Shown here piece by piece: positions 26,839 to 57,304 of a stretch of DNA of 64,000 bases (the stretch's first letter is position 1; every line of letters starts with the position of its first letter). Source of the stretch: Deltaproteobacteria bacterium (GTDB lineage: Bacteria; Desulfobacterota; Binatia; UBA1149; JAJCZL01); assembly GCA_029262415.1 (NCBI GenBank), contig JAJCZL010000058.1, forward strand, positions 135,712 through 199,711. Direction: 5' to 3'. Below the pieces are notes generated by a model. It ran no database searches and was not told the origin of the DNA. It saw only the letters and a list, made by a program, of their open reading frames with translations. A program made the position numbers and the translations under genes.

Positions 26839-26861
26839 CGCACCGCCACTCGCCTACGTCC

Positions 26862-28019: not shown

Positions 28020-28040
28020 AGTTGCCTCACGACGGTCGTT

Positions 28041-28958: not shown

Positions 28959-28973
28959 TGGTTCTCTTTCCGC

Positions 28974-30464: not shown

Positions 30465-30567
30465 ATCGGGTGCCGCCCCGGGCGCATGGTTCGCGGCCCT
30501 CGTCCTTACAGCCGCGCTGCTCCCCCTGGGAGCACGCTCACAAGCGGCACTCAGCCTTCTGCTTCTC

Positions 30568-31854: not shown

Positions 31855-31860
31855 GCCGCA

Positions 31861-32685: not shown

Positions 32686-33990
32686 GGACCGCCCGGGGCC
32701 GGGCTCGACTCCGTTTTCGGACCCGTCGGTAAGACGGGTCAACTTAACTTCGTCGAGCCAAAACTCACCACCTATAAAACGATTAAGAGACTTCACCTCG
32801 TGACGCAAAACTGCGATCCGAATACCGAGGCAAGCCTCAGGTACTGCAAACTCGAGCGCCACCGGATGCCAATATTCGGTCCCGCGCACCGGGTTGGTCG
32901 CGGCGTATAAACGACAACGCTCGTTGACGGCTCCGGCTTCGCCGCGCAACCCCTGGACGGCCAAGACAGGCCCGCCTGCTGACGTGATTTCGACCGCTTT
33001 CACGTAAGCATCGACCCGATAGCGTCCACCCGGTTGCACCGGTAAGTATTGCGTGACCCCTGCAAAGTCTGGGTTGTGCTCGCCGTCAAACACGATACGC
33101 AAAGCGCGCGCTCCTTCGGTACAATCGCGGCACAACGGCACATCGACGCGCACACTATCGGGGTGTTTGTTGAAGATGCGCCAACCGAAGCCACCATACA
33201 TGGCGCCCACCGGCACCGCCTCTTCGAAGTCACCGTTCAATACAGACGCGTCGGACACGAAACGGCGATCGGTTACGATCTCCCATGCCTCCTGAGCAAG
33301 GCCGCGCCTGAGCAAGAGGTCGACAAAAGCTGGGGTGACGTAGTCAGCAGGTTCGCCTCCGGCGACAATGCGCTTCCACGCTATCCGCGTCGTCGCAACC
33401 CCCAAGTTGCGACGCGCGAACGTGAAGTACTCTTCGAGGACCGAGTCGGTGATGACCTCGTTGATGACGAAGTCATCGATGTAGATACGGTGCAGCAGAG
33501 CAAAGAGTTCGTGGCGATCGCTTCGACGGCCGGCCAACGCCGCACCAAACTCCGCTGCGGCCTCCTGGTGACGGTCGGTTCGCGCGAGTAGCACTGCGGC
33601 CCTTAACCGTACATCGGTGTTTGACCGACCGTACTGAAAGGCGCGGTTCAGGTACTTGCTGGGGTCCTCGCCCCGGTCGGCAGCAAGCTCGGCCAGGCCT
33701 AAATAGCAAAACGCGCAAGCCGGGTTGCGCGAAAGCGTTTCGAGATATAGCGACTCCGCCTCTTGCGAACGCCGCAGCGTACGGCTGACCTCGGCCAGTT
33801 TAAACGTGTTCTCCCAGTCCAACGGCGCGGTACGTGCTGCAGCCCTGAGTGCCTCGAGCCGCCCGGAGTCGCCGGACCTCGAACGCAGTTGGGCGGCCAA
33901 CTCAGCTCCGCTTACAACAACCGTTACAGCGGCGAATACCGCGAGTAGTGAAATTGCCGCACGCTTAGCGGCGTCGCGAACCGGCTCCAC
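32401..33990 (-). CDS. Secreted TPR-repeat protein with C-terminal beta-rich domain
   Basis: N-terminal signal peptide and TPR-like repeats. The last ~95 codons overlap cpsB antisense and are low-complexity. Confidence 0.5.
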   Translation of the reverse strand: MEPVRDAAKRAAISLLAVFAAVTVVVSGAELAAQLRSRSGDSGRLEALRAAARTAPLDWENTFKLAEVSRTLRRSQEAESLYLETLSRNPACAFCYLGLAELAADRGEDPSKYLNRAFQYGRSNTDVRLRAAVLLARTDRHQEAAAEFGAALAGRRSDRHELFALLHRIYIDDFVINEVITDSVLEEYFTFARRNLGVATTRIAWKRIVAGGEPADYVTPAFVDLLLRRGLAQEAWEIVTDRRFVSDASVLNGDFEEAVPVGAMYGGFGWRIFNKHPDSVRVDVPLCRDCTEGARALRIVFDGEHNPDFAGVTQYLPVQPGGRYRVDAYVKAVEITSAGGPVLAVQGLRGEAGAVNERCRLYAATNPVRGTEYWHPVALEFAVPEACLGIRIAVLRHEVKSLNRFIGGEFWLDEVKLTRLTDGSENGVEPGPGRSLPSDAFEQSTEQTALPFAAGVPSAGSLDLLSRRFGEAGAWAEPSDDRARAVSGELDGRVADQGDGTLERAGQTGRAFGGRVGVAGDSVGEPGAQ

Positions 33991-33996
33991 GCCGAC

Positions 33997-36327
33997 TCAG
34001 GCCGCACGTTCGACGTCGGTCACACCGTCGTCCTGCGCGCCGGGGCGGCCATAGTACCCGTAGTAGCCGTAGTAGGAGAAGCGGTCTGATCGCGTCGAAA
34101 CACGGTTGAGAACGACGCCGAGAAGTTTCGACTGCATGCGCGTCATGTAGTCGCAGGCTTGTTGCGCGACTCTACGCGGCGTCATACCCGCACGGGTTAC
34201 CAGCAGGCAACCACCACCGAGCCGGTTGCTCAGCACCGGCACATCGGCGAAGCCGAGCGTCGGCGGAGCATCAACTATGATGTGATCGTAGCGATCGTCG
34301 AGTTCGCTGAGCATCGCACCCATACGTGCAGAGTCGAGCAAATCTACCGGGTTGGGCGAAACCGGTCCTGCCGCCACGACGTCTAACCCAGGCTGGTGCG
34401 TCCCGTGGATGATCTGGTCGATCCCCATGTTACCGGCGATGTAGTTGGTAACCCCGGGCGATTGCGGGACCTCGAGCGCGCAATGAACTCGTGGCTTCCG
34501 AAGATCGCAATCGATGATAACGACACGCTTGCCCATCTGCGCAAGTGCGGCCGCAAGGTTTGTGGCAATACAGGTCTTGCCCTCGCTCGGTCGTGCACTC
34601 GTGATCAGCAACCGCGTCGGCAGACCACCTACAGCGGCGAGGAACAGCGACGCGCGTAACGTGCGGATCGCTTCGGCACCTGCCGAGGTCGGCTGCAGTG
34701 AGACTTGCATGTCCGGCGAGGTCGCCTCGCGGCCATCCTCCGCGTCTGCAACGGCAAACTCAGGCACTGTGCCGAGTACCGGCAAGCGCAAGGAACGCTC
34801 GACATCCCCAGGCGTGCTCATCGAGTCGTCCATGTACTCTTGGAAGAAGGCTAGGCCGACTCCGCCAAATAGCCCGAGCATCATCGCCATCGCCATATTA
34901 AGCGGCAAATCCGGCGTATCCGGGTTGAGCGGAACCTCGGGAATATCGACGAGGGTAATATTCGAGGACCGGATAGCCTCGGTGACCTCGACTTCTTTCA
35001 TGCGACGGAGCAGGTCTTCGTAGATCTGCCGGTTGGTATCAACCTCACGGCGCATGATCTTAAAGTCGATCGCCTTGTCTTCGTATATCTGGATGACCTT
35101 GCGCTGGCTCTCGAGTTGGAAGCGAAGCAAGGCTTCACGATCCAACGCTGTACGGAAATCCGCAGCGACGCTGGCCACAATCGTGTCGGCCTGCTCCTGA
35201 ATCGTGTTCTCGATATCGGCGATGCGTGCGTCGAGCACCTTGACCGGCGGGTACTCGGCCGTAAACCGCCCACCAAGCTGCGCGCGCTCGGCACGCGAAG
35301 TCGCCAATTCTTCTTTCAACTTACCGACCAACGGATCGTTGACGATGATCGGCAACGACCAGCGATCGGGGCCCAGCATCTGGTTGTGCAGCGCTTCCAA
35401 CTTTATGCGTTCCGACTCCCCGTTTGTCAGCCGGTTGTTGATGTCGGCAAGGCGCTCGTGGATTACCTCTTCTTCTTGGTCGATCGCGTAGATCTCACGG
35501 CCCTTGGCAAAGGCGTGGAGTTCCAGCTCTGTCTCTTCCAGCCGAGCCTTGGTGACGTCGAGTTGCTTAGAGATAAAGTTACGACCCTGCGCCGCTGCTT
35601 CGATGCGCTGGTCCAACGTCAAGTCGATGTACTCGCGCGCCATCGCATCGGCGACCTTGGCGGCGGTCTCAGGGTCGGGGTTATAAAAACTCAGCTCGAC
35701 CAAAAACGACTTGCGACGCGGTCGAACCGCGATGCTTTCACCGAACTTCTCCAGAAGTTCCTGTTCTTTCTCACGTGCGATGAGCTCAGGATCAGGCTCA
35801 CCGGAAACGATCGATTTGAGCGATGAGACCATCCTTAACACCGTCGACTCGCCCATGCTGTCGCCGTTCAACCAAGGGTCGTTTTCTAAGCCGACCTTCT
35901 CAATGGTGCGCTTGGCTAAGCGGCGACTGGCGAGCAAATCGTACTGGGTCTGAAAGAAGTCGCTGTAAGCCTGCGCGCCTTGCGAGGATTGTTCGACCTC
36001 GTCGAATCCGACCACGTTGGGTCCACCCGGACGGATCTGAAGAAGAGCTGTCGAGCGGTAAAGCGGGGTAGCTGCGAGCGTGAAAATCAGTGCACTCAGC
36101 GCACAAAAACCAAACACCGCAGCGGCTGTCCAACGCCGCCGCAAAATCACCTGCAGGAAATCCCAGAGGTGCGTCTCTCGGCCGCCGAACCCTCCTGGGT
36201 CGGCCGGCGTACCGTACGCAGGCCGGTCGCGGTCGCTGATCGTTCCGGCACGTTCCTGCGCACGGATTTCTGCCGGAACGAACATTCCCGGCGGAAGTGA
36301 GGGTGAAGTGTCCTTACGGTCGGCCAT
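33997..36327 (-). CDS. wzc: Polysaccharide co-polymerase / BY-type tyrosine autokinase (Wzc/EpsB-like)
   Basis: Wzz-type periplasmic domain, Walker A SARPSEGKTCIATNLA, DxD, C-terminal Tyr cluster SYYGYYGYYG. Start at MADRKD (36325-36327). Confidence 0.85.
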   Translation of the reverse strand: MADRKDTSPSLPPGMFVPAEIRAQERAGTISDRDRPAYGTPADPGGFGGRETHLWDFLQVILRRRWTAAAVFGFCALSALIFTLAATPLYRSTALLQIRPGGPNVVGFDEVEQSSQGAQAYSDFFQTQYDLLASRRLAKRTIEKVGLENDPWLNGDSMGESTVLRMVSSLKSIVSGEPDPELIAREKEQELLEKFGESIAVRPRRKSFLVELSFYNPDPETAAKVADAMAREYIDLTLDQRIEAAAQGRNFISKQLDVTKARLEETELELHAFAKGREIYAIDQEEEVIHERLADINNRLTNGESERIKLEALHNQMLGPDRWSLPIIVNDPLVGKLKEELATSRAERAQLGGRFTAEYPPVKVLDARIADIENTIQEQADTIVASVAADFRTALDREALLRFQLESQRKVIQIYEDKAIDFKIMRREVDTNRQIYEDLLRRMKEVEVTEAIRSSNITLVDIPEVPLNPDTPDLPLNMAMAMMLGLFGGVGLAFFQEYMDDSMSTPGDVERSLRLPVLGTVPEFAVADAEDGREATSPDMQVSLQPTSAGAEAIRTLRASLFLAAVGGLPTRLLITSARPSEGKTCIATNLAAALAQMGKRVVIIDCDLRKPRVHCALEVPQSPGVTNYIAGNMGIDQIIHGTHQPGLDVVAAGPVSPNPVDLLDSARMGAMLSELDDRYDHIIVDAPPTLGFADVPVLSNRLGGGCLLVTRAGMTPRRVAQQACDYMTRMQSKLLGVVLNRVSTRSDRFSYYGYYGYYGRPGAQDDGVTDVERAA

Positions 36328-36337
36328 GGCTACGTCT

Positions 36338-37312
36338 TCAGAGCTTTCTGTCGAAGCGGAGAATTCCGAGTGCGCGGTCAAAGAAGTACTTCGCTCCGGA
36401 CATCGGGACAACCACAACGTCGTCCTCTTGTACGAAGAAATCCTCGGCGCGCCCGTCTCGAATGGCCGCAAGCCTAACCGGGATTTTCTCACGCTGACCG
36501 TCGTCAAGCTTGCGCAACAGAACGGCACCGGAAATGTTGGCCAGTGTGAGGTCCGCGCCGCCTGCGGTGGCGACTGCCTGACTGACGGTCGTCGGTTGCT
36601 GGAGCGGGTAGGCACCGGGTTTGTTGACCATCCCTTCTACGTAGAATGTCCCGGCCTGGGGGACGTTGATCACGTCGCCCGGCACCAATGCGACATTCAA
36701 CTGCAACTCGCCGCCGCCGGTGATGCGCTCCAGGTCGATAAGTGCGGTCTCTATGCCCGCGTCCGTTTGGCGTGTTATGCGGATGTTTCGACCGGCGTCT
36801 TCGTTCAAACCACCCGCCATCGCCAGGCCTTCGAGAAGACTCTTGCGACCGCGTAATTCAAAGACCCCCGGCTGCTGGACAAACCCCACGATTGAAATCT
36901 GATAACTGCGGTACTCCTTAATGAACACCGCGACCTGAGGGTCGTGGATGAACTTCTTGTAGTGCGTGACGAGACTCCGTTCGAGTTCGTAGGAACTGAG
37001 TCCGCCCGCCTCGACCTTACCTACGAAGGGAAGCGTTACGTGGCCGACGTTGGAAACCCGCACCGGGACGATGCGCGGACCCTGGTTGTCCTCGATGTCA
37101 AAAAGAGTGACTTCGAGTAGATCTTCGGGGCCGATCTTGTACTCGCCGGCGGCCGCGGTTTGGCCGGCCATGAGTGCGATAGAGTTGTTAATCTCTGCGT
37201 TTTCATCCGCATCGATGTTGTGGTCACGGAAAGCAGGGGAGATCGAACACGCCGACACCAACCCACACACAATCGACCCGAGAAGAGCGCTGCGTACGGC
37301 TGTAGGTGTCAT
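36338..37312 (-). CDS. wza: Polysaccharide export outer-membrane lipoprotein Wza
   Basis: Lipobox LVSAC. PES motif YKIGPEDLLEVTLF. SLBB-like repeats. Confidence 0.85.
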   Translation of the reverse strand: MTPTAVRSALLGSIVCGLVSACSISPAFRDHNIDADENAEINNSIALMAGQTAAAGEYKIGPEDLLEVTLFDIEDNQGPRIVPVRVSNVGHVTLPFVGKVEAGGLSSYELERSLVTHYKKFIHDPQVAVFIKEYRSYQISIVGFVQQPGVFELRGRKSLLEGLAMAGGLNEDAGRNIRITRQTDAGIETALIDLERITGGGELQLNVALVPGDVINVPQAGTFYVEGMVNKPGAYPLQQPTTVSQAVATAGGADLTLANISGAVLLRKLDDGQREKIPVRLAAIRDGRAEDFFVQEDDVVVVPMSGAKYFFDRALGILRFDRKL

Positions 37313-37391: not shown

Positions 37392-38264
37392 TCAATTCGG
37401 GCTTCCGTTCGTGTCATTACTGTTGCTATCGGCTATGATCACGCCCGCTGTGATCAGCGCAAACGCGCCGCCTGCGGCAGCTTCGACCGGAACCTGCGCA
37501 AGGCCGGCGCGCAGTGTGGTTCCGTATCCGCCTGCAGCGGCCGCCGCCGCACCCTCGTCGCCGGAACGCTCACTGCTCTCGGCAAGCCCCGCGGCTTGGT
37601 CTTCCGCCGTCGGCTCACCGTCGAGCGACGCAAGTCGAATACCGGCCGCGGGGGCTGCAGCTGCGTCGGTCAACGCCGCAAGCCGGTCGCCTTCGTTGAA
37701 GGAACCGCCGAGAGCCTCATGGTTGAGCAGCAAGCGCTCGCCTTTTTGCAGGGTACGATCCAAGCCCGCGATGCGCACCGCGAGTTCGCCCTCTTCCACG
37801 ACAACCACTGCGTCACCGTGGTCGTTGATCTCAACGTAGCCGTCGGCAGCTTGCTCATTAGCATTCTTGGTCGGCAATATCTCAGCATCAGCCGCGGTAA
37901 TCCGCAGGCCGGAGAAGGCCGCGAGGTGAAACGCGAGTTTACCCGAGCGCACTTCGATGGTCGGTCCTTCGTCGGTACCGGCTGCCGAAATCTCGGTATT
38001 GCTGTACATCCCGACAATGCCCTCGGAGCCGAGGTCGGCAAGAAGATAGCCTTCGACACCGGTTTTGAGGTGGTCGCCGGCGACCATTGGACGGGTCAAC
38101 TCTACCGCGTTCCAGGCGCCCTGGTCGGCTAAGAAAACCGGTCCGTTTACCTGAACAGTTCCGAAAATGGGGTTAACAGCCGCAGCCGGAACGACCGCGG
38201 CAAGTACCAGCGCGAACGCCGCCACGGGTGCGATTGACTGTACTCCGAGACCTCTTAGCCGCAT
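37392..38264 (-). CDS. Secreted hypothetical protein (first gene of the wza-wzc transcription unit)
   Basis: Signal peptide MRLRGLGVQSIAPVAAFALVLAAVVPAAA. Strong RBS GAGGAGGAGG. Confidence 0.5.
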   Translation of the reverse strand: MRLRGLGVQSIAPVAAFALVLAAVVPAAAVNPIFGTVQVNGPVFLADQGAWNAVELTRPMVAGDHLKTGVEGYLLADLGSEGIVGMYSNTEISAAGTDEGPTIEVRSGKLAFHLAAFSGLRITAADAEILPTKNANEQAADGYVEINDHGDAVVVVEEGELAVRIAGLDRTLQKGERLLLNHEALGGSFNEGDRLAALTDAAAAPAAGIRLASLDGEPTAEDQAAGLAESSERSGDEGAAAAAAGGYGTTLRAGLAQVPVEAAAGGAFALITAGVIIADSNSNDTNGSPN

Positions 38265-38612
38265 GGCAGCCTCCTCCTCTATCCAACTTCCGGCGACTGC
38301 CCCCCTGGGAAAGTCGCTCATCCACCACTACCACAACAACCACCGCCCATTTGCAGACCCGGCTAACCGAGCCCCGTGCCGGAGCACACCATAGACAGCA
38401 CCAGCGCATAAAGCGCCGAGGTTCAAGTTAACTGGATAGACGCCGCCCCGCAAGTTTCCCAACGCGCAAGAAACGTAAGCAAAGCAAAGATGTTGCGCGG
38501 TTTCTGCCGGCGAGTGGCGCGCGGCTGCCGCGCTATCGACGGCGCGTGGGCAACAGGACAAGGTCCCTGGCCGAGCGGATTGCGCTCGACCGGTCGGGGC
38601 CCTGGTTAGAGT

Positions 38613-39836
38613 TCAAGTGCAGAGCCAGGCCTCTAGCTGTGCATAGACGTCCGGGTCGGCCAACAGCTCCATATGCCCGGTCGCGGGGAAGATGCGTATG
38701 TTTTCCGGGCGGAAGCCCAGCGTACGGGCCGGGTCGTCGTGGCGCCCAATCGCGCTCGACGGATGCACGAGTCCGTCCCCAAGAAGCGTACCCGCGAGCC
38801 CTGCATGTGCGGGCGACAGGGTGCCGGCAATCGCGAAGTGCTGTGGGCCTTCGGTCAGCGGTGTTGCGCATCGGCAATCGTCGTGGCGCTCGAAACGCTC
38901 TGCACCGTTCCAATCGGCATCGACGACGTTACCATAGCGAAGGTCGGTGACGGCTGCGCTTCGAATCGCCCCAAGCCGGGCGAGCGGCGCTGTGTAGCGA
39001 CTCCAGGCCGCGAGCGCTTGGAATCGATTGCCCGCGCGTTCGAGCACCGCACCGTGGTGAGGCGTACCGAGGTAGACAGCGCAAGCGACTTTCGGCAGCC
39101 AAGCTGCACTGCTCAGCGCCGCCGCGTGGAGCGCACTGCGGATTACCAACCCGCCCAGACTGTGACCGACTAAGGTGATCTTTTTTAGCGGAACCGGCCA
39201 CTGCTCGTTCAGCTGGGTGAGCTGCCCAGCAAGGTCGTCACCGTTGTGCGAGACGTGACGGCCGCTGTTGTAGCGCAGGTAGAGCGACGTGCAGCCGAGG
39301 GCAGACGCAAGGGCGTCCCCGTGGCTATGCGCTCTACCGTCCGTACGCGTGCGCGTCCACTGCAGGTCGTTCATACATAAGCCGTGGACGAGGATGAGCA
39401 CGTGTTCGCGAGCATCCGGGAGTGTCGCCATCAACGCGTCACGTTCGAGTCGAAGCGCACGACCCCCAACTCGAAGCGACATCGAGATCGCAAGCGCATT
39501 GTCCGTGCCCTCGAGATGATCGCCGATCACGCCGTTCAAGATCGAAACGAACGGCTCGTGCGAAACCTCGTTCGAGGTGTCACCGAGGGCCTCGCCAGCG
39601 GTGTTCGACGCGACCGAGGGCGCGAGCGCGTAGCCCACACCACCGCGTAAAACTTTGTTCACGCCGCGCACGCACGCGTAAACAAACCCTGCTATCCCTG
39701 GAGCGCGCCCGCGCGGTATCGCGAGGAAAGGCGGCCATACAATGTTGCGATGCATGCCCTCGACGATGTTGGTGACACCATCGACCGCATCGAAGACCAG
39801 GCCGAGTCCGCCGCGTACTGAACCGTTGTCGCTCAT
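38613..39836 (-). CDS. Alpha/beta hydrolase (PGAP1-like lipase/esterase)
   Basis: ILVHGLCMN...GHSLGG nucleophile elbow. Confidence 0.65.
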   Translation of the reverse strand: MSDNGSVRGGLGLVFDAVDGVTNIVEGMHRNIVWPPFLAIPRGRAPGIAGFVYACVRGVNKVLRGGVGYALAPSVASNTAGEALGDTSNEVSHEPFVSILNGVIGDHLEGTDNALAISMSLRVGGRALRLERDALMATLPDAREHVLILVHGLCMNDLQWTRTRTDGRAHSHGDALASALGCTSLYLRYNSGRHVSHNGDDLAGQLTQLNEQWPVPLKKITLVGHSLGGLVIRSALHAAALSSAAWLPKVACAVYLGTPHHGAVLERAGNRFQALAAWSRYTAPLARLGAIRSAAVTDLRYGNVVDADWNGAERFERHDDCRCATPLTEGPQHFAIAGTLSPAHAGLAGTLLGDGLVHPSSAIGRHDDPARTLGFRPENIRIFPATGHMELLADPDVYAQLEAWLCT

Positions 39837-39914
39837 AGGAAGTAACAAATCCTGTCTCGCCGGCGCCAAGACAGCAAACAACTACGACAGCGAGCCTAGA
39901 TCGGCTCGCCTCCC

Positions 39915-41387
39915 TTACAGCGTCAACTCCAGCGACAGGTACCCGAAGGTGATGTCTTTGGCCGGGCCGGTCTGTTCGATGAAATCTCCGGTGAACAAGC
40001 GACTGAGCCCTAACGCAACTTTGGCATATGGACAAAGCACCTTGGTCAGCGTCAGGTCAACTTCGGTGCCGACCTCCTTTGCGCTCCCCGGTGAACCCGC
40101 GCGCACGACGGAGCCGCCTGCGTTATACAAGGCGTCTTCTTCTTCGGCGCGCCGGAAATGGTGAAGATCCGCGCGAAAAACCAGACCGGGTGCGAGAGTA
40201 ACAGTGCCGGTAAGACGGGCAGCCGCGATGTTCTGGCGGCCGACGAAATCGATGAACCCTAAGAACGCATGTCCGAGCGGAAACAGCTGGTTGAAGGTCT
40301 CAACATCGCCGTCGCCGGCTCGATCGTCACCACTTGCGTAGTCCACCCCAAGAGCGAGCCGACCGGGGTTACCGATGATCTCGACCTTGCGGCCCAATTC
40401 GACCGACCCCATATACGCGGAGATGTCGCCGGTGCCTAGATCACCAAACTGGTATGCAACCTCGGCGTCGATATCGTTGGCTCCCGAGGCGCCGTATCCG
40501 CGGGTTCCAATCGTATAGCGCTCTTCCCGACCGCTGCTGCCATTGAAAGTGGCCGTCTCGTTGTCAAGGCCGAACGCATATACGTCTACGCCTGAAGTAG
40601 TTGAGCAGCTGCGGTTCAGGTAGATACCATAAAACTCATTGTCACCAGCCTCATTGAAATCGCGGAGTTCAATTATAACCGGCTTTGTAAAAAACGCGGT
40701 TGCTTTCCACGGCCCCGAAGCGAGGTGAGCGCTGCCGCCTTCAAACGTGCGGCGCGTGTTCGACCAGTCCAACGGACTCACCAGCCGTTGTTTGCCGAGC
40801 AGTAACTCCTCACGCCCACCACGCAACGAGAGCGTGCCGCCGGCAATCGGTGTCGTGTACTCGACGAAACCGTTTTGCAGATCGAGGTAGTCTGCCTCGA
40901 GACTACGGCGACCACCGGGGAGATCGCGCCCCGACGCGAGCGCGGTTTTGGCCTCGACAAACACCCGCCAGTGCTCGCCGATGTGGAGATCGGCATGGGC
41001 GAAGAAGCGGCTGAGCAGGTAAATGTCGTCGTGATTGGCCGGCGCGCCGAAGGCGAAATCTGTCCAACTCTCGATGCGCTCGCGCACCTGCCCCCCCAAA
41101 CTCAGCCACACCGTACCGCCATCGCTCAGCTCGATGTACTTAAGTTCGTCGACTCCTGCGCGACCGGAGTTCGCAAGCACCGACCAGTCCTCCTGAAAAC
41201 GCAGCTTCTTGAACTGGGGACGCTCCTCGCCGTCCCCAGGACGCACGACCGCACCAGCCGCCGACGCCGTTGCCGGTACCAATGACGCTGCGACAAGAGC
41301 GATAGCCACTAGTACGGTCAACAGAGAAAGTCGGGTGCTCACGAACGGATCACGCCGCCTTCTCCTTATCTTTTTTGCTTTTCGCAT
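39915..41387 (-). CDS. Alginate-export-family outer-membrane beta-barrel (AlgE-like)
   Basis: Signal peptide after a Lys/Arg-rich N-terminus. KYIELSDGGTVWLSLGGQVRERIESW and C-terminal aromatic residues. RBS GGAGGAGG. Confidence 0.6.
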   Translation of the reverse strand: MRKAKKIRRRRRDPFVSTRLSLLTVLVAIALVAASLVPATASAAGAVVRPGDGEERPQFKKLRFQEDWSVLANSGRAGVDELKYIELSDGGTVWLSLGGQVRERIESWTDFAFGAPANHDDIYLLSRFFAHADLHIGEHWRVFVEAKTALASGRDLPGGRRSLEADYLDLQNGFVEYTTPIAGGTLSLRGGREELLLGKQRLVSPLDWSNTRRTFEGGSAHLASGPWKATAFFTKPVIIELRDFNEAGDNEFYGIYLNRSCSTTSGVDVYAFGLDNETATFNGSSGREERYTIGTRGYGASGANDIDAEVAYQFGDLGTGDISAYMGSVELGRKVEIIGNPGRLALGVDYASGDDRAGDGDVETFNQLFPLGHAFLGFIDFVGRQNIAAARLTGTVTLAPGLVFRADLHHFRRAEEEDALYNAGGSVVRAGSPGSAKEVGTEVDLTLTKVLCPYAKVALGLSRLFTGDFIEQTGPAKDITFGYLSLELTL

Positions 41388-41841
41388 TTCGCGCCTCCTC
41401 CATCTTGGCGGGGTTGACCACCATCATCGGGCAGGTAGCGTTACGCATAACGTGCTCGGTTACGCTGCCCATCATCAAGTGCTTGAGGCCGGTGTGGCCA
41501 TGGGTGGCCATGACGATCAGGTCGGCGTCGATCTCCTGGGCAACACGGAGAATCGATTCCTCGACCGAACCCGAGCGCACCAGCACCTCGACATCCTGGT
41601 TTTTGATATGCCTGGACACCCAGCCCTCTGCCTCTTCTCGCACCTGCTGCAAGATCGCCCGATCGAGCTCGGCAGCGATCTCACCCGTCCAGTGCGAATA
41701 AGCGATCGCCATCGTCTGCTGGACGTGCAGCACGGTCAGTTTGGCGCCAGCCTGCTTGGCAAGGTGCGCAGCGAACTGAACAGCCGACCACGAAGGCTTA
41801 GACAGATCGGTGGTGGTCAGGATTCTTTTGAATTGTCTCAT
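41350..41841 (-). CDS. Universal stress protein UspA
   Basis: ILTTTDLS...DADLIVMATHGHTGLKHLMMGSVTEHVMRNATCPMMVV. Confidence 0.8.
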   Translation of the reverse strand: MRQFKRILTTTDLSKPSWSAVQFAAHLAKQAGAKLTVLHVQQTMAIAYSHWTGEIAAELDRAILQQVREEAEGWVSRHIKNQDVEVLVRSGSVEESILRVAQEIDADLIVMATHGHTGLKHLMMGSVTEHVMRNATCPMMVVNPAKMEEARNAKSKKDKEKAA

Positions 41842-41863
41842 TTTGATGCCTCCGTTTCGTTAC

Positions 41864-42697
41864 TTACCAAGTCGCGGGGTCCGCATTCTTCGCCAACAGC
41901 TTAGGGTCGAAGAGTCCGTCCTCAGGCATGGTCCCTTCCTCAAGTTCGAGGATACGTAGCTCACTTGTGCCGCCCTCCTGGACGTCGATCACACGCACGG
42001 CCATCGGCAACATCGACTTGCCGACCTGCTTAAAGTCCGAGAAGTGCTGGGTGCGCCACAGGCGGCCCGAGGGATCGAAGAAACGCCGCTCAAGCGGACG
42101 CAAGTCATGTTGATGAACCCAAGTAGTGATGCGCTTGAAGGGCCCGGCTCCGGCAGGCGTTTCGTGGAGTTCGTAGGCAGGTTGTAGCCTGTAGTTTCCG
42201 AGTCCGTGCAGTCTGACGTTTCCGCTACTGCGGGTCCAGAAACCGAGGTCAGACACCGTCAGATCGCTGCCGAGAAAGAACTGCTCGCCGCCGACTCGGG
42301 TAAGCCGACGCACGCGCCTGACCGGCGGCACGTAGCTCCAGATCTCAGGGTCACCGCCGCCAACTTCGCGGATCAACACTGCGAAGCCTTTCACTTCGGG
42401 AGGTCCGGTCAGGACGGTAAGTAACGCAGGCCCCTCGGGCAACACTTTATAGGCTTGACGGCCGGCCCACTTAACGACAACTCCGTCTCCCGAGCGTATC
42501 GTCATTTCGACATTGCGGACGCTAGGCGTCGCGGGGGCAAGGTTACGACGTAGTCCTTGTAAGATTTCGCCTAGGCCATCAGCGCCCCCAGCCGCAGCCG
42601 GCTCTGCAGCGCAAACAAAGATGGCCACCGCTGCGGCGATCACGACCCCTGCTGCGACCGCGCGGGACTTTTTCGTCGCGACATTCGTGGCTCTCAT
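41864..42697 (-). CDS. Outer-membrane lipoprotein-sorting (LolA-like fold) family protein
   Basis: Signal peptide. Family-typical length and motifs. RBS ggagg. Confidence 0.55.
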   Translation of the reverse strand: MRATNVATKKSRAVAAGVVIAAAVAIFVCAAEPAAAGGADGLGEILQGLRRNLAPATPSVRNVEMTIRSGDGVVVKWAGRQAYKVLPEGPALLTVLTGPPEVKGFAVLIREVGGGDPEIWSYVPPVRRVRRLTRVGGEQFFLGSDLTVSDLGFWTRSSGNVRLHGLGNYRLQPAYELHETPAGAGPFKRITTWVHQHDLRPLERRFFDPSGRLWRTQHFSDFKQVGKSMLPMAVRVIDVQEGGTSELRILELEEGTMPEDGLFDPKLLAKNADPATW

Positions 42698-42748
42698 TGG
42701 GCACACCTCCGATGTCGGGTCAGGTTCCGGCACTTCCACTAGTGGCAG

Positions 42749-42764
42749 AGCACAGCCTGTGCCA
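42749..42764 (-). promoter_or_regulatory. Sigma-54 promoter (minus-strand reading TGGCACAGGCTGTGCT; GG-N10-GC) about 40 nt upstream of the LolA-like start
   Basis: Read from sequence. Matches TGGCAC-N5-TTGC at the key positions. Confidence 0.45.
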
Positions 42765-42865: not shown

Positions 42866-44233
42866 TCAGTCAGCGTCTATACCGAGTTCTTCGATCTTAC
42901 GATAAAGCGAGGACAACCCGATACCGAGCCGCTCGGCAGCCTGCTTCTTGTCGCCCTCGCACGCGTGCAGAATGGACGAAACGTGGTGTGACTCGTACGT
43001 GCGCATCGCACCTTTGAGTTCGTCGCCAACGTCTTCACCATGGTTGCCCGCAGCTCGCCCTGACCCTTCGACTCCGCTGGGGAGATCCTCCGAAGTCAGC
43101 CACGGCTCAGTACCGACGATCATCGCATGCTCAATCGCATTCTCGAGCTCACGGACGTTGCCCTTCCAAGGATGAACGGACAAAAGCTTGAGCGCAGCGT
43201 TATCTACACCTTGAAAATGACGATTCATTTCGGTGTTGTGGCGTCCCACCAAGAAATCCACCAGCAACGGTATGTCTTCTCGTCGTTCGCGTAGGGGCGG
43301 AATCTGAATGCCAAATACGTTGAGACGGTAGTACAGGTCTTCACGGAAAGTGCCCTCTGCGCACTGCTTTTCGAGATCCCGATTGGTCGCAGTAATGATC
43401 CGGAGATCGACTTTCTGCGGCTTGGCGGCACCGAGCGGCAGGAACTCCTTTTCCTCGATCGCGCGTAGCACCTTGACCTGCAAGCCAAGTGGCAAATCGC
43501 TGATTTCGTCGAGAAACAGCGTCCCGCCGCGTGCACGCGAGAACAGTCCCTCGCTCGACTGCTTGGCATCGGTAAAGGCACCGCGCACGTAGCCAAACAG
43601 TTGGCTTTCGAGCAGGTTCTCGGGGATCGCCCCGCAGTTGACCGGCAAGAAGATCGCATCAGCACGTGGGCTATGGCGGTGAATCGCGCGCGCCACGACT
43701 TCTTTGCCAACCCCGCTCTCGCCGGTGATGAGCACCGTCGATGACGTTCGGGCGACCTGTTCGACGCGACGCGCGATCTCGCGCGTCGCCACGCTGCGAC
43801 CGACCAAGCTATCGAAGTGATACCGGTCTTCGACTTTTCGACGCAGATCCTGGCGCTCCCAGGCCTCGCGCCGGTGCTGCAGCAGCCGTTCAACTTTGGT
43901 CAGCACCTCGTCATAGACGAGAGGCTTGAGCATGAAGTCGTGGGCACCCTCGTGCAGCGCAGACACGGCCGACTCGATACTCGCGTGCGCGGTCATCATC
44001 ACGACCAGGGTTTGTGGGTAGCTCTCGCGGATCTGCCGCAGCAAGGACAGCCCATCGACATTGGGCATCCGCAGGTCGGTGAGCACCAACTCAAAATCGC
44101 TCTGACCCAATGCAGAAAGCGCCTCGCGACCATCGACCGCGGTTGAGACGACGTGGCCCGCATCCCCAAGCACCTCGGCCAAAGCCATACGGCTGGCCGG
44201 CTCGTCATCAACTACTAAGATCGCACTCCCCAT
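42866..44233 (-). CDS. NtrC-family sigma-54-dependent response regulator (REC + AAA+ + Fis HTH)
   Basis: ILVVDDE...DLRMP. GESGVGKE Walker A. GAFTDA motif. C-terminal HTH. Confidence 0.9.
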   Translation of the reverse strand: MGSAILVVDDEPASRMALAEVLGDAGHVVSTAVDGREALSALGQSDFELVLTDLRMPNVDGLSLLRQIRESYPQTLVVMMTAHASIESAVSALHEGAHDFMLKPLVYDEVLTKVERLLQHRREAWERQDLRRKVEDRYHFDSLVGRSVATREIARRVEQVARTSSTVLITGESGVGKEVVARAIHRHSPRADAIFLPVNCGAIPENLLESQLFGYVRGAFTDAKQSSEGLFSRARGGTLFLDEISDLPLGLQVKVLRAIEEKEFLPLGAAKPQKVDLRIITATNRDLEKQCAEGTFREDLYYRLNVFGIQIPPLRERREDIPLLVDFLVGRHNTEMNRHFQGVDNAALKLLSVHPWKGNVRELENAIEHAMIVGTEPWLTSEDLPSGVEGSGRAAGNHGEDVGDELKGAMRTYESHHVSSILHACEGDKKQAAERLGIGLSSLYRKIEELGIDAD

Positions 44234-44470
44234 CGCGCTACAAATAGGCGAGGGATACGGATGAGAGTCAAGGCGTGGCATCGATCAGCTACCCAGCAAT
44301 AGGTCTGCCAGTCCACCCGGGTCTACAAAAGCACGGGTTTTGCCTGCTGTTTGTCGATCTCTAGCACCGGTTTGGATTGGGCCGGTTCTCGCATCCGGGA
44401 GAGCAGTCCGGGTGTTTTCTCAGATACCAGAAGCGAGCCGTCGATACGCTGCGTCTCGCACGCCTCGCTT

Positions 44471-44486
44471 CGGCACGGAAGCTGCA
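44471..44486 (+). promoter_or_regulatory. Sigma-54 promoter CGGCACGGAAGCTGCA (GG 44472-3, GC 44484-5) upstream of the DHOD-like gene
   Basis: Read from sequence. RBS aaggag and the ATG at 44517 follow. Confidence 0.5.
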
Positions 44487-44516: not shown

Positions 44517-45473
44517 ATGGCGGACCTAACGACCCGTTATATGGGCGTCGACTTGGATTCCCCGCTCGTCGCCGCCGCATCCCCTGGGTCACGGACTGTT
44601 GACGGGTGCTGCGCCCTAGAAGAAGCTGGGGCCGCGGCAATCGTCATGTGCTCTCTCTTCGCAGAGTCCGTGACTGCGGTGGCGGCGGGCGAGGAAACCG
44701 ACGTCTACAGGTCCAAGAGCGGCAATTTCATCTTTGGGCCCGAGGCCTACATCGAACACCTGAGCCGTGTCGTCGAGGCGGTCGATATCCCGGTGATCGC
44801 AAGCCTCAACGTTTCGCGGCCGGGTCCCTGGGAAGACTATGTCCCGGCTATCGCGGAGGTCGGCGTCGCGGCGATCGAACTCGACGTTTACAAGATAGTT
44901 ACCGATCCCGGCTGCGACGACGCCCTGGTGCTCGGCACGTACATCGAGTGCCTACGTCGGGTGAAAACCCGCGTTGATGTGCCGGTCGCGCTCAAGCTGG
45001 CGCCCTATTTCACGAGCATGGCGGCCGCCGCCTCAGCCTTCGATGACGCGGGCGCCGACGCACTGGTCCTCTTTAACCGGTTCTACCAGCCGACCATCGA
45101 TATCGAGCACCGCACCTTATCGATGAGCTTCGATCCTTCTGATAGCGCCGACAGCCGCCTGCCGATGATCTGGATAGCCATCCTGACCGGGCAAGTACAT
45201 GCCGACCTCGCGGCTAGCGGAGGCATTGGATCGGCCGAGGACGTCATCCGCATGTTGATGGCGGGAGCCACAGTAACGCAGCTATGCTCGGCGGTCTTGC
45301 GCGAGGGCAACGGGGTGTTCCGCAAGATCCGCGCAGACCTGAGTCGATGGCTCGACAGGCACGAGTGCAACGGCGTCAAAGACGTACGCGGGGTCATGCG
45401 CATGGCGCGGCACCCCGGCGATCGTGGATATGGCCGTGAAGGCTACCAACAGATTATCAACCGTCACTGGTAG
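44517..45473 (+). CDS. Dihydroorotate-dehydrogenase-like / dihydropyrimidine-dehydrogenase-like flavin TIM-barrel protein
   Basis: DHOD-family motifs (IASLNVS, ELDVY, SGGIGSAEDV). Confidence 0.65.
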   Translation: MADLTTRYMGVDLDSPLVAAASPGSRTVDGCCALEEAGAAAIVMCSLFAESVTAVAAGEETDVYRSKSGNFIFGPEAYIEHLSRVVEAVDIPVIASLNVSRPGPWEDYVPAIAEVGVAAIELDVYKIVTDPGCDDALVLGTYIECLRRVKTRVDVPVALKLAPYFTSMAAAASAFDDAGADALVLFNRFYQPTIDIEHRTLSMSFDPSDSADSRLPMIWIAILTGQVHADLAASGGIGSAEDVIRMLMAGATVTQLCSAVLREGNGVFRKIRADLSRWLDRHECNGVKDVRGVMRMARHPGDRGYGREGYQQIINRHW

Positions 45474-45535: not shown

Positions 45536-46645
45536 GTGACCGACGCCGACAAAGACTACCCGGGCCATGCACACGCACGCGCGATCCTCGATAACGTGCG
45601 CGACGCGATTATAACCATCGATGGGGATGGCACCATCACCCATTTCAACCGGGCTGCCGAGACGATGTTTGAGCGTAAGGCCGCCGACACCATCGGCGCA
45701 AACGTCAGCGAACTGATGCCCGAGCCATACCGGAGCGAACACACCCGCTACATCGGCGCATACCGTGACAGCGGTGTACCAAAAGCGATCGGTCGCATCC
45801 GCGACGTGCACGGGCAACGTGCCGGTGGAGAAGTATTTCCGATGGAACTGTCGGTGGCAGAGGTCATCAGTGGACCTAACCCGATCTACACCGCGATCAT
45901 CCGCGACGTTACAGCGCTACGTCACGCCACAGAAGTTGTGCGCGAACGGGAGCGCCTCGCCGAGTTAGGTGCTATAGCCGCGAAACTCGTACATGATATT
46001 GGCAACCCTCTTTCAGGTTTGACCATGCGCGTCGAGCATATGCGACGCTTAGCCGATACCCCCGATGGGCTCCCGCCCGAGAAACTACGCGCGTCGCTCG
46101 ACCACGTGCGAAACGCCGCCGCATCGATGAACGCATTGATCCGCGGCTTCATGGATTTCGCACGCGGGCAGCGCTTGCAGCGCAGCAAAGTCGACATCGC
46201 GGCGTTACTCTCGGTGATCGTCGACTTGTGGGCGCCGGTTGCCGCACAATCAAACGCATCGATAGTCTTGGACACCGGACAGGGATTGCTCTTCGTGCAC
46301 GCCGATGCTGAACAGCTGCAGCGCGTGTTTCACAACTTAATTCGCAACGGCGTCGAGGCAGTGGCAGGTGGTTGCGGCAAAACCGTTCGCGTCTCGGCCG
46401 AGCTGTCCGATGGACGCGTAGCCGTCTCTGTCTGCGACGACGGTCCCGGTGTCCCGGCCAACGTCGATGTGTTTCACCTGTTCGAAACTACTAAACCCGG
46501 TGGAACCGGCATTGGGCTGGCAGTAGCCAAACAAATCGTCTCCGCACATGGCGGAACAATCTCGCACCGCCCGCGCGCGGGCGGGGGCGCGGAGTTTCGC
46601 GTCGAGTTGGCGTGCGGCGACGAGATCGAGGGCCCCAGGGCGTAA
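45536..46645 (+). CDS. PAS-domain sensor histidine kinase
   Basis: PAS domain. H-box LVHDIGNPLSG. N/G1/G2 boxes HNLIRNGVEA, DDGPGV, GTGIGLAV. Confidence 0.8.
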   Translation: MTDADKDYPGHAHARAILDNVRDAIITIDGDGTITHFNRAAETMFERKAADTIGANVSELMPEPYRSEHTRYIGAYRDSGVPKAIGRIRDVHGQRAGGEVFPMELSVAEVISGPNPIYTAIIRDVTALRHATEVVRERERLAELGAIAAKLVHDIGNPLSGLTMRVEHMRRLADTPDGLPPEKLRASLDHVRNAAASMNALIRGFMDFARGQRLQRSKVDIAALLSVIVDLWAPVAAQSNASIVLDTGQGLLFVHADAEQLQRVFHNLIRNGVEAVAGGCGKTVRVSAELSDGRVAVSVCDDGPGVPANVDVFHLFETTKPGGTGIGLAVAKQIVSAHGGTISHRPRAGGGAEFRVELACGDEIEGPRA

Positions 46646-47271: not shown

Positions 47272-47892
47272 CTAGGGAAGCTCTGCACGAGTCTTTCAAA
47301 ATGAGATAAGTACGTAAGTCGAGCGACTCGTGAGGAGGTTGGGCGATGGGTGAGCAGCGTAGGTTCGCGTCGGTAGCGTGGAGTCGGAAAGGAAAGGTAA
47401 CGCGCCGGGAGCGATTTCTCGCCGAGATGGACGCGGTGATACCGTGGAAGCCGTTGCTGGACGCGATCCCGAGATGAAGCAGGCGATGAAGGGCAAAGCC
47501 TGGTATTTCGGCGTGAAGCTGCACGTGGGGACGGACTGCAAAGGCCGGGTGCATCACGTGACGGCGACCCATGCGGCGACTCATGACATCAGGCAACTGC
47601 CGCATCTGCTGCACGGGGAGGAAGGTGCGCCATCGAGGTCTGGCCAAGAACCTGGCCCGAGCCCACACCATGTTCGGACTGGCAAGTCTGTACAGCGTGC
47701 GCCGTCAGCTACTTCCCAAGGGGGTGCCCCGTGCCGGTTGTGAAGCCGCAAGACAGGCCGGGTAGCGCCGGCCGGCTAGCTTCCGCGAGCTGAAACCGCG
47801 CTACATTCCGCGCGGAATGTGCATAACCGGCGCAAAGTACACCGGCGGCACGATGATCGGTCCGCTCAGTCACTTGTGCAGAGCTTCCCTAG
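47272..47892. mobile_element. Internally deleted IS5-family insertion sequence (613 bp) with perfect 13-bp terminal IRs GGAAGCTCTGCAC (47276-47288 / 47876-47888) and 4-bp CTAG target duplication (47272-75 / 47889-92)
   Basis: IRs and TSD read directly. Internal ORF fragments match IS5 transposase N-terminal, middle and C-terminal segments. Confidence 0.65.
47346..47765 (+). pseudogene. IS5-family DDE transposase remnant in three frames
   Basis: MGEQRRFASVAWSRKGKVTRRERFLAEMDAVIPWKPLLDAIP / KGKAWYFGVKLHVGTDCKGRVHHVTATHAATHDI..LLHGEE / RKVRHRGLAKNLARAHTMFGLASLYSVRRQLL. Confidence 0.6.
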
Positions 47893-48584: not shown

Positions 48585-48691
48585 GCCTGACCCGATGCAC
48601 GAACGGTGCCAAGCACATCTGCCCGGATTTACTGAAAAAATGCCACCCTAAGCGCATAACTTCGCTGTTCGGGCGTTGCCGTCGTGCCGCT

Positions 48692-48724: not shown

Positions 48725-48760
48725 CCCGTGGTCGCGCGTAGGCGCTCCCACGGTTTTTTT
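48725..48760 (+). terminator. GC-rich hairpin (CCGTGG...CCACGG with inner GCGC/GCGC) followed by T7, in the kdsB leader
   Basis: Read from sequence. Lies between the predicted -10 and the kdsB ATG. Confidence 0.3.
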
Positions 48761-49504: not shown

Positions 49505-49562
49505 GCAGGCAACGGCGCGAGCACGGCGTTGACGGCAAGACTGCGCAGCCGCGTTTTGCTAA

Positions 49563-52107
<2,545 letters not shown>

Positions 52108-52111
<4 letters not shown>

Positions 52112-53094: not shown

Positions 53095-53104
53095 GAACCA
53101 CGCG

Positions 53105-55184: not shown

Positions 55185-55217
55185 TCTCAGGCCCGTGCAA
55201 GTAGGGCCGCACACCAC

Positions 55218-56699
55218 ATGGCACTTGAGCAAAGGCTAAATCTATCGGTCAAGCAGACCCTGAATCTGCGCATGACCCCGCAACTCCGGCAGGCGATCAA
55301 AATCCTGCAGGTGTCGCGCCCAGAGCTTGAGAGCATGGTCTCAGACGAACTCTGCCAGAATCCTACGCTCGAAGAAGCCGAGGGAATGCCCGATGCGGGT
55401 GAGTATGCATCGCGCACCGGCGACATCGAGACCAGCGAGTCCGAGCCGGTCGCCGAACCCACCTCGAACGCCGACACCGGCGACTCTACCCAGATGGAGA
55501 AGATCGACTGGGACGACTACGTAGACCGCTACTCCGGTGACTTCCACGGTTCGGTTTCCGGCGGATCGGACCGCGACGACGGTCGCACGAGCATTTTCGA
55601 AAACACCGCGAAGACCGAAGAAACGCTGACCGAGGTCTTGGAAGACGAGCTCAACATTATCGCGATGAGCGAAGAAGAGCGCCGGATCGGCCGCGTGATC
55701 GTCAACAATCTTAACAGCGACGGCTACCTTTCTTGCTCGACCGAAGAACTCGCATTTATGGCACAAACCACCGTGGAGATGATCGACGAGGTTCGCGAGA
55801 TCGTCCAAGAACTCGAGCCGGTCGGCTGCGGGTGCATCAATCTACGCGAATGCCTGCTCATCCAGTTAAAGCTGCAGGGTTACGAGCCCGACGACTACGT
55901 CATTGCCATCGTCAACGGGCAACTCAAGGAACTCGAGGCACGCCGCTACGACAGGATCGCCAAGACCCTCGGCTGTAACGAAGATGAGGTCGTCGAAGCC
56001 CACAAGATCATCCGTAGCCTGGAACCCAAACCGGGCAGCAATTACGGCCAGGGCGAAACCCGGTTCATTCAACCGGACTGCTACGTACACAAAGTCGGCG
56101 ACGATCTGGTCGTCACCCTCAACGAAGAAGGGCTCCCGGCCCTGCGTGTGAGCCCGTACTACGAAAAACTCCTCAAGACCGAGCTACCGCCCGGCGATGC
56201 TCGCGGCTATATCCAGGAAAAGGTCCGTGCGGCGGTGTGGATGATCCGCTCGATCGAACAGCGCCAGCGCACCCTCCGCAAAGTCACTGAAAGCATCGTC
56301 AGCCATCAGCGCGAATTCTTCCTCCACGGTGTCCAGCATCTCAAGCCAATGGTCCTCAAGGACGTCGCCAACGACATCGGCATGCACGAGTCCACGGTTA
56401 GCCGCGCCACGTCCAACAAATACGTGCAAGTGGACCGCGGCCTCTACGAGCTGAAATACTTCTTCACCAGCAGTCTGAAGGGTACCGACGGCAGCGATTT
56501 TTCTTCTGAGAGCGTGAAGGAAAAGATCCAGGAGATCATTGGCAAAGAGGACCCGCGCAAACCTCTGAGCGACCAGGTAATCGCCGCCCAGTTGGCCAAG
56601 GAACATGTTGACATCGCACGACGAACGGTGGCCAAATACCGAGAATTCCTGGGCATACTACCGTCGTCAAAGCGAAAGAGGTATAAAGACGCAGACTGA
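55218..56699 (+). CDS. rpoN: RNA polymerase sigma-54 factor
   Basis: RpoN box ARRTVAKYRE at the C-terminus. Conserved N-terminal region. Confidence 0.95.
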   Translation: MALEQRLNLSVKQTLNLRMTPQLRQAIKILQVSRPELESMVSDELCQNPTLEEAEGMPDAGEYASRTGDIETSESEPVAEPTSNADTGDSTQMEKIDWDDYVDRYSGDFHGSVSGGSDRDDGRTSIFENTAKTEETLTEVLEDELNIIAMSEEERRIGRVIVNNLNSDGYLSCSTEELAFMAQTTVEMIDEVREIVQELEPVGCGCINLRECLLIQLKLQGYEPDDYVIAIVNGQLKELEARRYDRIAKTLGCNEDEVVEAHKIIRSLEPKPGSNYGQGETRFIQPDCYVHKVGDDLVVTLNEEGLPALRVSPYYEKLLKTELPPGDARGYIQEKVRAAVWMIRSIEQRQRTLRKVTESIVSHQREFFLHGVQHLKPMVLKDVANDIGMHESTVSRATSNKYVQVDRGLYELKYFFTSSLKGTDGSDFSSESVKEKIQEIIGKEDPRKPLSDQVIAAQLAKEHVDIARRTVAKYREFLGILPSSKRKRYKDAD

Positions 56700-57294: not shown

Positions 57295-57304
57295 CTCTAG
57301 GCCG

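Follow-up and report, generated by a model that had tools for sequence, protein, structure and literature searches.

A predicted sigma-54 promoter before LolA-like, usp and porin genes beside FixL-type and NtrC-type regulator genes in a Binatia genome: a candidate hypoxia-responsive envelope module

We analysed a 64,000-nucleotide stretch of the metagenome-assembled genome of an uncultured Deltaproteobacteria bacterium (GTDB class Binatia; GenBank contig JAJCZL010000058.1, positions 135,712 to 199,711 of the forward strand), referred to here as the window. It carries an operon encoding a periplasmic LolA-superfamily protein (LolA-like), a universal stress protein (Usp) and a predicted 18-strand outer-membrane porin, behind a predicted sigma-54 promoter and close to genes for an NtrC-type bacterial enhancer-binding protein (bEBP) and a histidine kinase with a FixL-type haem-PAS domain. 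We regard the locus as a new version of familiar systems, namely a two-component sigma-54 regulon combined with a porin of the AlgE fold and a protein resembling LolA3. We read the operon as a hypoxia-responsive envelope module under the adjacent FixL-type/NtrC-type system, with a pore that would pass small respiratory solutes, and we hold this reading to be evenly poised between right and wrong. The analysis itself shows the identities and modelled folds of the gene products, the enrichment and conservation of the motif, the FixL-like residues of the sensor and the gene neighbourhoods of related loci; from these we infer the signal, the pairing of kinase and activator, what the porin passes and what the LolA-like protein does.

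The genes belong to a single long co-oriented run on the minus strand, from 44281 down to about 24150. Read 5' to 3' and named by Pfam, the order is the bEBP gene (42866..44233; Response_reg, Sigma54_activat and HTH_8, giving a receiver, an AAA+ domain and HTH_8), a 168-nt spacer, the LolA-like gene (41864..42697, 277 aa; PF17131/TP_0789-like clade, 4e-27), usp (41350..41841, 163 aa, UspA family; Pfam Usp, 3e-35), the porin gene (39915..41387, 490 aa with a signal peptide; Alginate_exp PF13372, 3e-83), a 78-nt spacer (39837..39914) and an alpha/beta hydrolase gene (38613..39836, 407 aa; DUF676/PGAP1/Abhydrolase_6, with the motif GHSLGG). The likely start of the bEBP is the ATG at 44233; its longest open reading frame (ORF) begins at 44281. 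These Pfam assignments (LolA_like PF17131, Usp, Alginate_exp PF13372 and a PGAP1-like hydrolase) agree with the gene identities given in the original prediction, a reading of the DNA made before any database search. That reading had also credited all of the genes with strong GGAGG ribosome-binding sites. The LolA-like, usp and porin genes each have GGAGG 7-8 nt 5' of the ATG, and the hydrolase gene has no Shine-Dalgarno sequence. If translation of the porin begins at the ATG at 41387, its ORF shares 38 nt with that of usp.

The motif TGGCACAGGCTGTGCT lies at 42764-42749 on the minus strand, between the bEBP and LolA-like genes as predicted; its GG and GC are as far apart as in a canonical -24/-12 element (-24 TGGCAC, -12 GTGCT). 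It is 101 nt past the bEBP stop codon (42866) and 51 nt 5' of the LolA-like ATG (42697), and as TGGCAC-AGGCT-GTGCT it has one mismatch to the consensus TGGCAC-N5-TTGCW. The pattern TGGCACN6TGCW occurs three times in the window where 0.21 occurrences are expected, a count reached in none of 100 shuffles, and the motif thus exceeds chance occurrence. The window was also scanned with GG and GC held fixed and one or two mismatches permitted. Four sites had no more than one mismatch (63124-63109, 48611-48596, 44310-44295 and 42764-42749); all four fall in the intergenic DNA that makes up about 9.5% of the window, each directly upstream of a gene on the same strand, while six of the eight two-mismatch sites fall inside genes. 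Nothing resembling a sigma-70 promoter scored between 38000 and 45000, and no terminator was detected in the 168 nt between the bEBP stop and the LolA-like start. Enrichment, intergenic placement and the conservation described below all support the proposal that a sigma-54 promoter drives the LolA-like, usp and porin genes downstream of their own activator gene.

Two of the four sites belong to other genes. TGGCACCGTTCGTGCA (48596-48611, minus strand) ends 11 nt before the ATG of a 231-aa ORF (47889-48584, minus strand) that has no Pfam match and contains an H-box-like 'EVEHDIANLV'; either its mRNA is leaderless or its true start is further downstream. TGGCACGGCTGTTGCT (63109-63124, minus strand) is a perfect-consensus site 23 nt 5' of ORF 61802-63085 (minus strand), a Tad/VWA (TadG-like) Flp-pilus gene.

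The original prediction had staked itself on conservation of the promoter, and the motif is kept in two related loci, L085 and L092, with a similar one in a third. L085 and L092 both have TGGCATGACTTGTGCT, letter for letter, just ahead of their LolA-like-usp genes, where it sits inside the longest identical block (21 nt) of the alignment of the two intergenic regions, with flanks that diverge on both sides. In a Binatia metagenome-assembled genome (MAG; loci L002/L007), TGGCACGTGATCTGCT, with one mismatch, is found 65 nt before an operon encoding a Rieske protein, cytochrome b, an octahaem cytochrome, a porin and Usp. Promoters were not anchored by MAFFT alignment. Sites like these also precede the regulatory genes. 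Within the window, TGGCAGACCTATTGCT (44295..44310, minus strand) lies upstream of the bEBP gene and the weaker CGGCACGGAAGCTGCA (44471..44486, plus strand) lies 30 nt before a gene for a dihydroorotate dehydrogenase (DHODH)-like flavoprotein. Sigma-54-like sites likewise precede the bEBP genes of L085 (9384-9369) and L092 (980-995), and in L085 TGGCATCCGGTATGCA is found 48 nt before the DHODH-like gene. Taken together, the sites before the bEBP genes of all three loci and before the DHODH-like genes of the window and L085 point to autoregulation, and the site at 44295..44310 is probably one through which the bEBP controls its own gene.

The DHODH-like gene (44517..45473, plus strand; NCBIfam NF005741) is co-oriented with the kinase gene (45536..46645, plus strand), and both are divergent from the bEBP gene. 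Kinase PAS residues 12-127 align over 116 residues with the haem domains of Bradyrhizobium FixL (E 1e-26 to 1e-27; E 1.8e-27 against 2cmn and 1dp6). The proximal-histidine position is kept ('RSEH' in place of 'RSRH' at FixL His200), as is the equivalent of Arg220, with Ala in the position of Arg206. L085 and L092 have the same kinase alongside their bEBP, and the DHODH-like protein is 60% identical to the one in the same position in L085; a metagenome scan started from it returned just L085 itself and two distant matches. The bEBP is 68, 66 and 62% identical to its orthologues in L085, L092 and L002, respectively, and has more than 100 homologues at 59-68% identity, of which the few with a named source are mostly MAGs of Binatia and Deltaproteobacteria. 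At three Binatia-type loci the orthologous bEBP is paired instead with a protoglobin kinase, and at one of these it directly precedes a cbb3 oxidase operon (ccoNOQP-ccoGHIS). Rieske/cytochrome b/multihaem operons likewise adjoin genes for orthologous activators. Membership of the PEP-CTERM-associated PrsK-PrsR family was considered and rejected, as NCBIfam scores were far under the cut-offs.

The nearest precedents are the haem-based oxygen sensing systems FixL-FixJ and NmpRSTU. As in rhizobial FixL-FixJ, the window kinase has a haem-PAS domain that aligns with Bradyrhizobium FixL and keeps the proximal His and the Arg220 equivalent, and an orthologue of its presumed partner adjoins an operon for cbb3 oxidase, a classic target of FixLJ-FixK. 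It differs in that the partner is an NtrC-type sigma-54 activator and not of the FixJ/LuxR type, in targets read from -24/-12 promoters, in the replacement of Arg206, and in that haem binding is here a sequence-based prediction. We found no published description of a FixL-type domain paired with a sigma-54 activator. NmpRSTU of Myxococcus xanthus (protoglobin kinase NmpU, NtrC-like NmpR) and NtrYX are similar in that a haem-based O2 sensor feeds an NtrC-like, autoregulated, sigma-54-associated regulator (PMC6211767), and Binatia orthologues of the window bEBP are encoded beside protoglobin kinases. Unlike NmpU, the window sensor is of the PAS-haem type, no NmpS/NmpT relay is encoded nearby, and the known target of NmpR is pilR, not envelope or respiratory genes.

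Our proposal is that a fall in O2 (or a shift in another haem ligand or in redox state) would lead the kinase to phosphorylate the activator, which would then open the sigma-54 promoter at 42764-42749 and probably also the promoters of its own gene and of the kinase operon. The operon products would remodel the envelope for low-oxygen respiration: Usp would play its customary part in hypoxia or stasis, the periplasmic LolA-fold protein would be a conserved companion, and the AlgE-fold barrel is predicted to let small respiratory solutes, of which nitrogen oxyanions are the most plausible, across the outer membrane. The loci have four elements in common, namely a haem sensor kinase, an NtrC-type bEBP, a promoter of the sigma-54 type, and Usp accompanied by a LolA-like protein, a porin or both; the respiratory complexes that go with them vary. 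Because constant regulators are combined with variable respiratory partners, the operon of the window would, in our reading, be the part of a low-oxygen (or nitric oxide/redox) regulon that acts on the envelope.

The porin matches PF13372 with 280 bits against a gathering cut-off of 25.2. Its AlphaFold2 (AF2) model (pLDDT 82.6) has 18 long strands, and the best fold match in the PDB by Foldseek is AlgE (E 2.6e-18, TM 0.59-0.75, 16-18% identity), followed by other 18-strand porins, which bears out the predicted AlgE-like barrel at the level of the model. A profile of the porin subfamily had no match among PDB sequences. The window porin shares with AlgE of Pseudomonas aeruginosa the Pfam family and the 18-strand monomeric barrel, and differs from it in the low identity, in homologues that sit beside respiratory operons, and in a pore charge that is not evidently positive. 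No alg8, alg44, algK, algX, algG or algL gene was found in the window annotation or among the neighbours of its homologues. An Arg-lined, anion-selective pore was considered, and a crude count of lumen-facing residues by strand parity lent it no support.

Homologues of the porin are abundant (1578 at E <= 1e-10, the closest 55% identical), and we examined the neighbourhoods of 80 genome loci carrying porins 40-59% identical to it; downstream neighbours were covered by a Pfam scan and upstream ones were characterised through cluster representatives. In 32 of the 80, respiratory genes (NapA, NapB, NapC/NirT-like, Fer4_11, type-II Mo enzyme with EB_dh, octahaem, Rieske, cytochrome b or CcsBA-like) lie within 6 kb of the porin, the nearest being on the porin strand in 31 of these 32 loci and no more than 300 nt away in 14. 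Methyl-accepting chemotaxis proteins, NrtA-like NMT1 binding proteins and molybdenum-cofactor genes recur as well. Since the contexts include nap, nxr-like, octahaem and NrtA-like genes, nitrogen oxyanions are the best guess at the substrate. A Usp gene was present in the Binatia locus only. Genes for bEBPs occur in 14 of the loci, orthologous to that of the window in the Binatia one only.

The genes of the napA/napB/napC type found near PF13372 porins are mostly from Phycisphaerales, including the cultured Poriferisphaera sp. WC338 (L050). Other porins of this group adjoin a type-II Mo enzyme with EB_dh (Nxr/Nar-like), or an octahaem protein with Rieske/cytochrome b. Loci with nap-type, Nxr/Nar-like or octahaem neighbours are L018, L019, L022, L026, L029, L031, L036, L050 and L056.

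The operon is followed by a Wzx/Wzy exopolysaccharide (EPS) cluster (24153-37312, both strands), and this gives the strongest of the alternatives, which we think unlikely: that the porin is the barrel half of a composite translocon of outer-membrane polysaccharide export (OPX) protein and beta-barrel, through which the polymer leaves the cell as in EpsY/EpsX of Myxococcus. The cluster encodes Wzx (24153-25571), a priming transferase (Bac_transf, 28974-30464), a Wzy_C protein (30292-31854), a Wzc-type polysaccharide copolymerase (PCP, 33997-36615) and a short lipoprotein OPX (36338-37312, minus strand; Poly_export with two SLBB domains, a lipobox, 324 aa), together with a polytopic 426-aa protein, a family 2 glycosyltransferase (GT2), other glycosyltransferases, a CpsB phosphatase and a 529-aa protein resembling tetratricopeptide-repeat and carbohydrate-binding modules (TPR/CBM-like). 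The OPX has no match to the membrane-spanning domain Wza_C, and published work shows short OPX proteins in partnership with 18-strand barrels that are structurally nearest to AlgE; such OPX proteins are reported to need a barrel of this kind encoded close by, and AlgE homologues are found near OPX genes (PMC9601211, PMC9603273). No candidate for a dedicated barrel was found within the cluster: the 529-aa protein is TPR/CBM-like, the 426-aa protein is a polytopic inner-membrane protein and a 305-aa protein is cytoplasmic. The OPX gene is the third gene downstream of the porin on the same strand, so that the locus resembles the EpsY/EpsX and WzaX/WzpX systems in having, in a Wzx/Wzy cluster, a short OPX lipoprotein within three genes of an AlgE-fold barrel. 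It departs from them in that the barrel is grouped with usp behind the sigma-54 promoter of the LolA-like gene, a porin-usp pairing that recurs in the cytochrome operon, while no sigma-54 site precedes the EPS genes and two genes and the hairpin spacer intervene before the OPX gene. No homologue of OPX, PCP, Wzx, Wzy or the priming transferase lies within 10 kb of the porin in any of the 80 homologue loci, in contrast to the 32 with respiratory genes. EpsX/Wzp proteins have been described as PgaA-like or AlgE-like by structure, not as members of PF13372. The earlier idea of anionic-polymer export survives only in this form, as a translocon for the EPS cluster, and not as a system of porin, LolA-like protein and lipase. 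Between the hydrolase and OPX genes lies a gene (37392-38321, minus strand) for a 309-aa protein with no family match, which combines a signal or anchor at the N-terminus with a region rich in Ala and Gly and, at the C-terminal end, a hydrophobic segment that precedes DSNSNDTNGSPN.

The LolA-like protein has a signal peptide and no clear lipobox, and its only Pfam profile matches are PF17131 and, weakly, DUF1329. Its AF2 model (pLDDT 88.3) matches 3bk5, LolA3 (9tp6), the DUF1329 protein 4z48 and 3buu at TM 0.62-0.86; canonical LolA structures reach just TM 0.33-0.55 or so, compared with 0.73-0.86 for the LolA3/3bk5 clade. The LolA-superfamily fold that had been predicted for the first gene is therefore recovered in the model, within the LolA3/3bk5 clade, and there are neither lol genes nearby nor a close LolA match of the kind expected of a canonical LolA lipoprotein carrier. 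The protein resembles the PF17131 proteins (LolA3 of Porphyromonas gingivalis, 9tp6; VP 3bk5; and, with DUF1329, 4z48) in fold (TM 0.73-0.86), in a sheet larger than that of LolA and in a C-terminal helix. It differs from them in belonging to a sparse subclade (28 cluster representatives at E <= 1e-30) that is tied to cytochrome loci, its nearest relative in a library search being P0124 in L085 at 41% identity, with a second homologue in L092; the named members have no known function. LolA-like alignments of 33 and of 6 sequences contained no conserved stretch of 7-10 columns, and the genome scan was seeded from the porin alignment. The Usp is 50% identical to the one that follows the LolA-like gene in L085 and 41% identical to the one that follows the porin in L002.

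Six places with close homologues of the LolA-like gene were examined, and in four of them genes for multihaem proteins or cytochrome b stand next to the homologue. In L092 (4034-10814) and L085 (226-6322) the sigma-54-driven LolA-like-usp pair comes immediately after a cluster of genes for a 7-haem lipoprotein, a 706-aa protein whose C-terminus is barrel-like (...MEVSFQ), a cytochrome c, (a Rieske protein,) a cytochrome b and a 9-haem cytochrome with a C-terminal anchor. Its predicted products make this cluster look like an electron conduit of the porin-cytochrome type joined to a bc-type complex. These contexts invite a second alternative, for which we see only a slim chance, smaller than that of the EPS translocon: that the LolA-fold protein, and perhaps the porin, helps to build or run an apparatus for electron transfer at the outer membrane or outside the cell, the genes for which lie elsewhere in the genome. 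The LolA-fold protein might, for example, escort lipidated multihaem cytochromes, or a hydrophobic cofactor, through the periplasm. The fold offers the hydrophobic groove typical of LolA-like carriers (PMC13103446), and a further homologue, P0122, precedes a gene for a NapC/NirT-like multihaem protein. On the other side, the window itself has no cytochrome gene, the association comes from a handful of loci, two of them from closely related organisms, and the PF17131 clade includes LolA3, for which no function is known and which does not bind LolB (PMC13103446).

The 407-aa hydrolase bears on the functional model of the original prediction, which has the porin, the lipase and a LolA-fold carrier working together as an inducible system that would take up or export a polymer, either hydrophobic or anionic. 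The 78-nt spacer before it folds into two hairpins (-38.4 kcal/mol, z = -2.4), possibly an attenuator or partial terminator to judge from the predicted fold. The sole GGGAGG near the gene abuts the porin stop codon, about 70 nt 5' of the likely ATG (39836), and in the fold it is paired with CUUCCU just before that ATG; no Shine-Dalgarno sequence was found there or at an alternative TTG start (39881). The hydrolase has no signal peptide, no match among PDB sequences and no homologue in any related locus examined. It is probably a bystander or only weakly co-expressed, and is a doubtful member of the operon. The polymer model draws on genes that are contiguous and co-oriented, on LolA-fold proteins that carry hydrophobic ligands, on AlgE as an exporter of a polyanion and on the weak DUF1329 match of the LolA-like protein, and gene pairs for a DUF1329 (LolA-like) protein and a DUF1302 barrel provide a precedent. 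However, the three genes co-occur nowhere else examined: none of the 80 porin loci carries a LolA-like or hydrolase gene, or polysaccharide genes, and the neighbourhoods of porin and LolA-like homologues are respiratory, not those of lipid or polymer catabolism. With the hydrolase lacking a signal peptide and ribosome-binding site behind its hairpins, we consider the polymer system improbable, and its place would be taken by an oxygen-sensor-controlled envelope module of a respiratory regulon.

Several observations weigh against the hypoxia-responsive module. The L1 loop of the bEBP (43566-43582, minus strand) reads GAFTDA, in place of the GAFTGA or GSFTGA of 119 of the 120 close homologues listed, and the residue recurs in an independent Logan assembly of the locus (L001). 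The pairing of kinase and activator can be drawn only from conserved synteny, since their genes are divergent with one gene between them. A search of the window, L085 and L002 for an upstream activator site in common found none. Sigma-54 motifs stand upstream of porin homologues in 19 of 81 loci, about the chance level, and with no general enrichment the notion of a sigma-54-regulated porin family was dropped. The strand-parity count gave 11 conserved basic and 14 acidic residues facing the lumen. No ORF of at least 80 aa anywhere in the 64-kb window contains the c-type cytochrome motif CXXCH, so that no respiratory enzyme is locally linked to the operon, and a short OPX gene without a barrel partner lies three genes from the porin.

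The altered loop underlies the weakest alternative, that the motif is no working promoter because the GAFTDA activator is inactive, transcription coming from an unrecognised promoter or from bEBP read-through; we give it marginally less weight even than the polymer system, for while this bEBP is alone in its orthologue group in having GAFTDA, the effect of the G-to-D change on sigma-54 contact was left open for VfmH (PMC10714721) and the 168 nt after the bEBP stop hold no detected terminator, the motif is conserved across loci, the sites with at most one mismatch are all intergenic, and no sigma-70-like site was found. GAFTDA is also present in DVU2106 of Desulfovibrio vulgaris, an enhancer-binding protein with an assigned sigma-54 regulon that is classed among the variants expected to stay active (PMC4641369).

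The wider window includes rpoN itself (55218..56699, plus strand; Sigma54_AID, Sigma54_CBD and Sigma54_DBD all present), which sits within an lptC-lptA-lptB-rpoN-hpf-rapZ cluster. The surrounding region (48728-58671, plus strand) is a classic lipopolysaccharide/rpoN neighbourhood, with kdsB-like, pyrG, kdsA-like and kdsD-like (SIS+CBS) genes followed by lptC, lptA, lptB, rpoN, hpf and rapZ. Menaquinone genes, identified by Pfam as a MenH-like hydrolase, MenB, MenC and MenE, lie at 1668-10021 (plus strand), about 30 kb from the operon, with MenF/MenD probably encoded upstream of them. In the Binatia locus L002 (10833-17515) men genes directly follow porin-usp-merR, and their presence in both places suggests remnant synteny and an origin among Binatia-like bacteria. 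At 90% clustering, MetK and PyrG as well as the porin and the LolA-like protein are singletons, which indicates that the source lineage is poorly sampled. No Rfam family reached its gathering score in the window.

The hypoxia-responsive module can be extended to a joint proposal that we put forward tentatively, as clearly less probable than the reading of the operon itself. Its regulatory part would be a conserved and so far undescribed oxygen-sensing sigma-54 regulon of Binatia/Myxococcota-like bacteria, in which the NtrC-type activator takes its signal from a kinase of the FixL type or the protoglobin type. The core output of the regulon would be the LolA-fold protein and Usp, and it would drive Rieske/cytochrome b-multihaem and cbb3 oxidase operons as well. 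Its other part would make a widespread subfamily of 'alginate export' barrels dedicated channels through which respiratory oxyanions such as nitrate and nitrite enter across the outer membrane, encoded in the nap, nxr-like and octahaem operons of Planctomycetota, Acidobacteriota, Nitrospinota and Binatia.

Barrels of PF13372 routinely receive the label 'alginate export' in annotation, and metagenome surveys count them as markers of exopolysaccharide; if a large subfamily of them is a respiratory-solute channel, those exopolysaccharide counts are wrong. The proposal, if true, would point to a neglected step in respiration, the passage of oxyanions across the outer membrane to periplasmic reductases. 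It would also add a sigma-54 branch to haem-based oxygen sensing, alongside FixLJ and NmpRSTU, and would provide the LolA3/TP_0789-like clade with its first physiological context, low-oxygen respiration.

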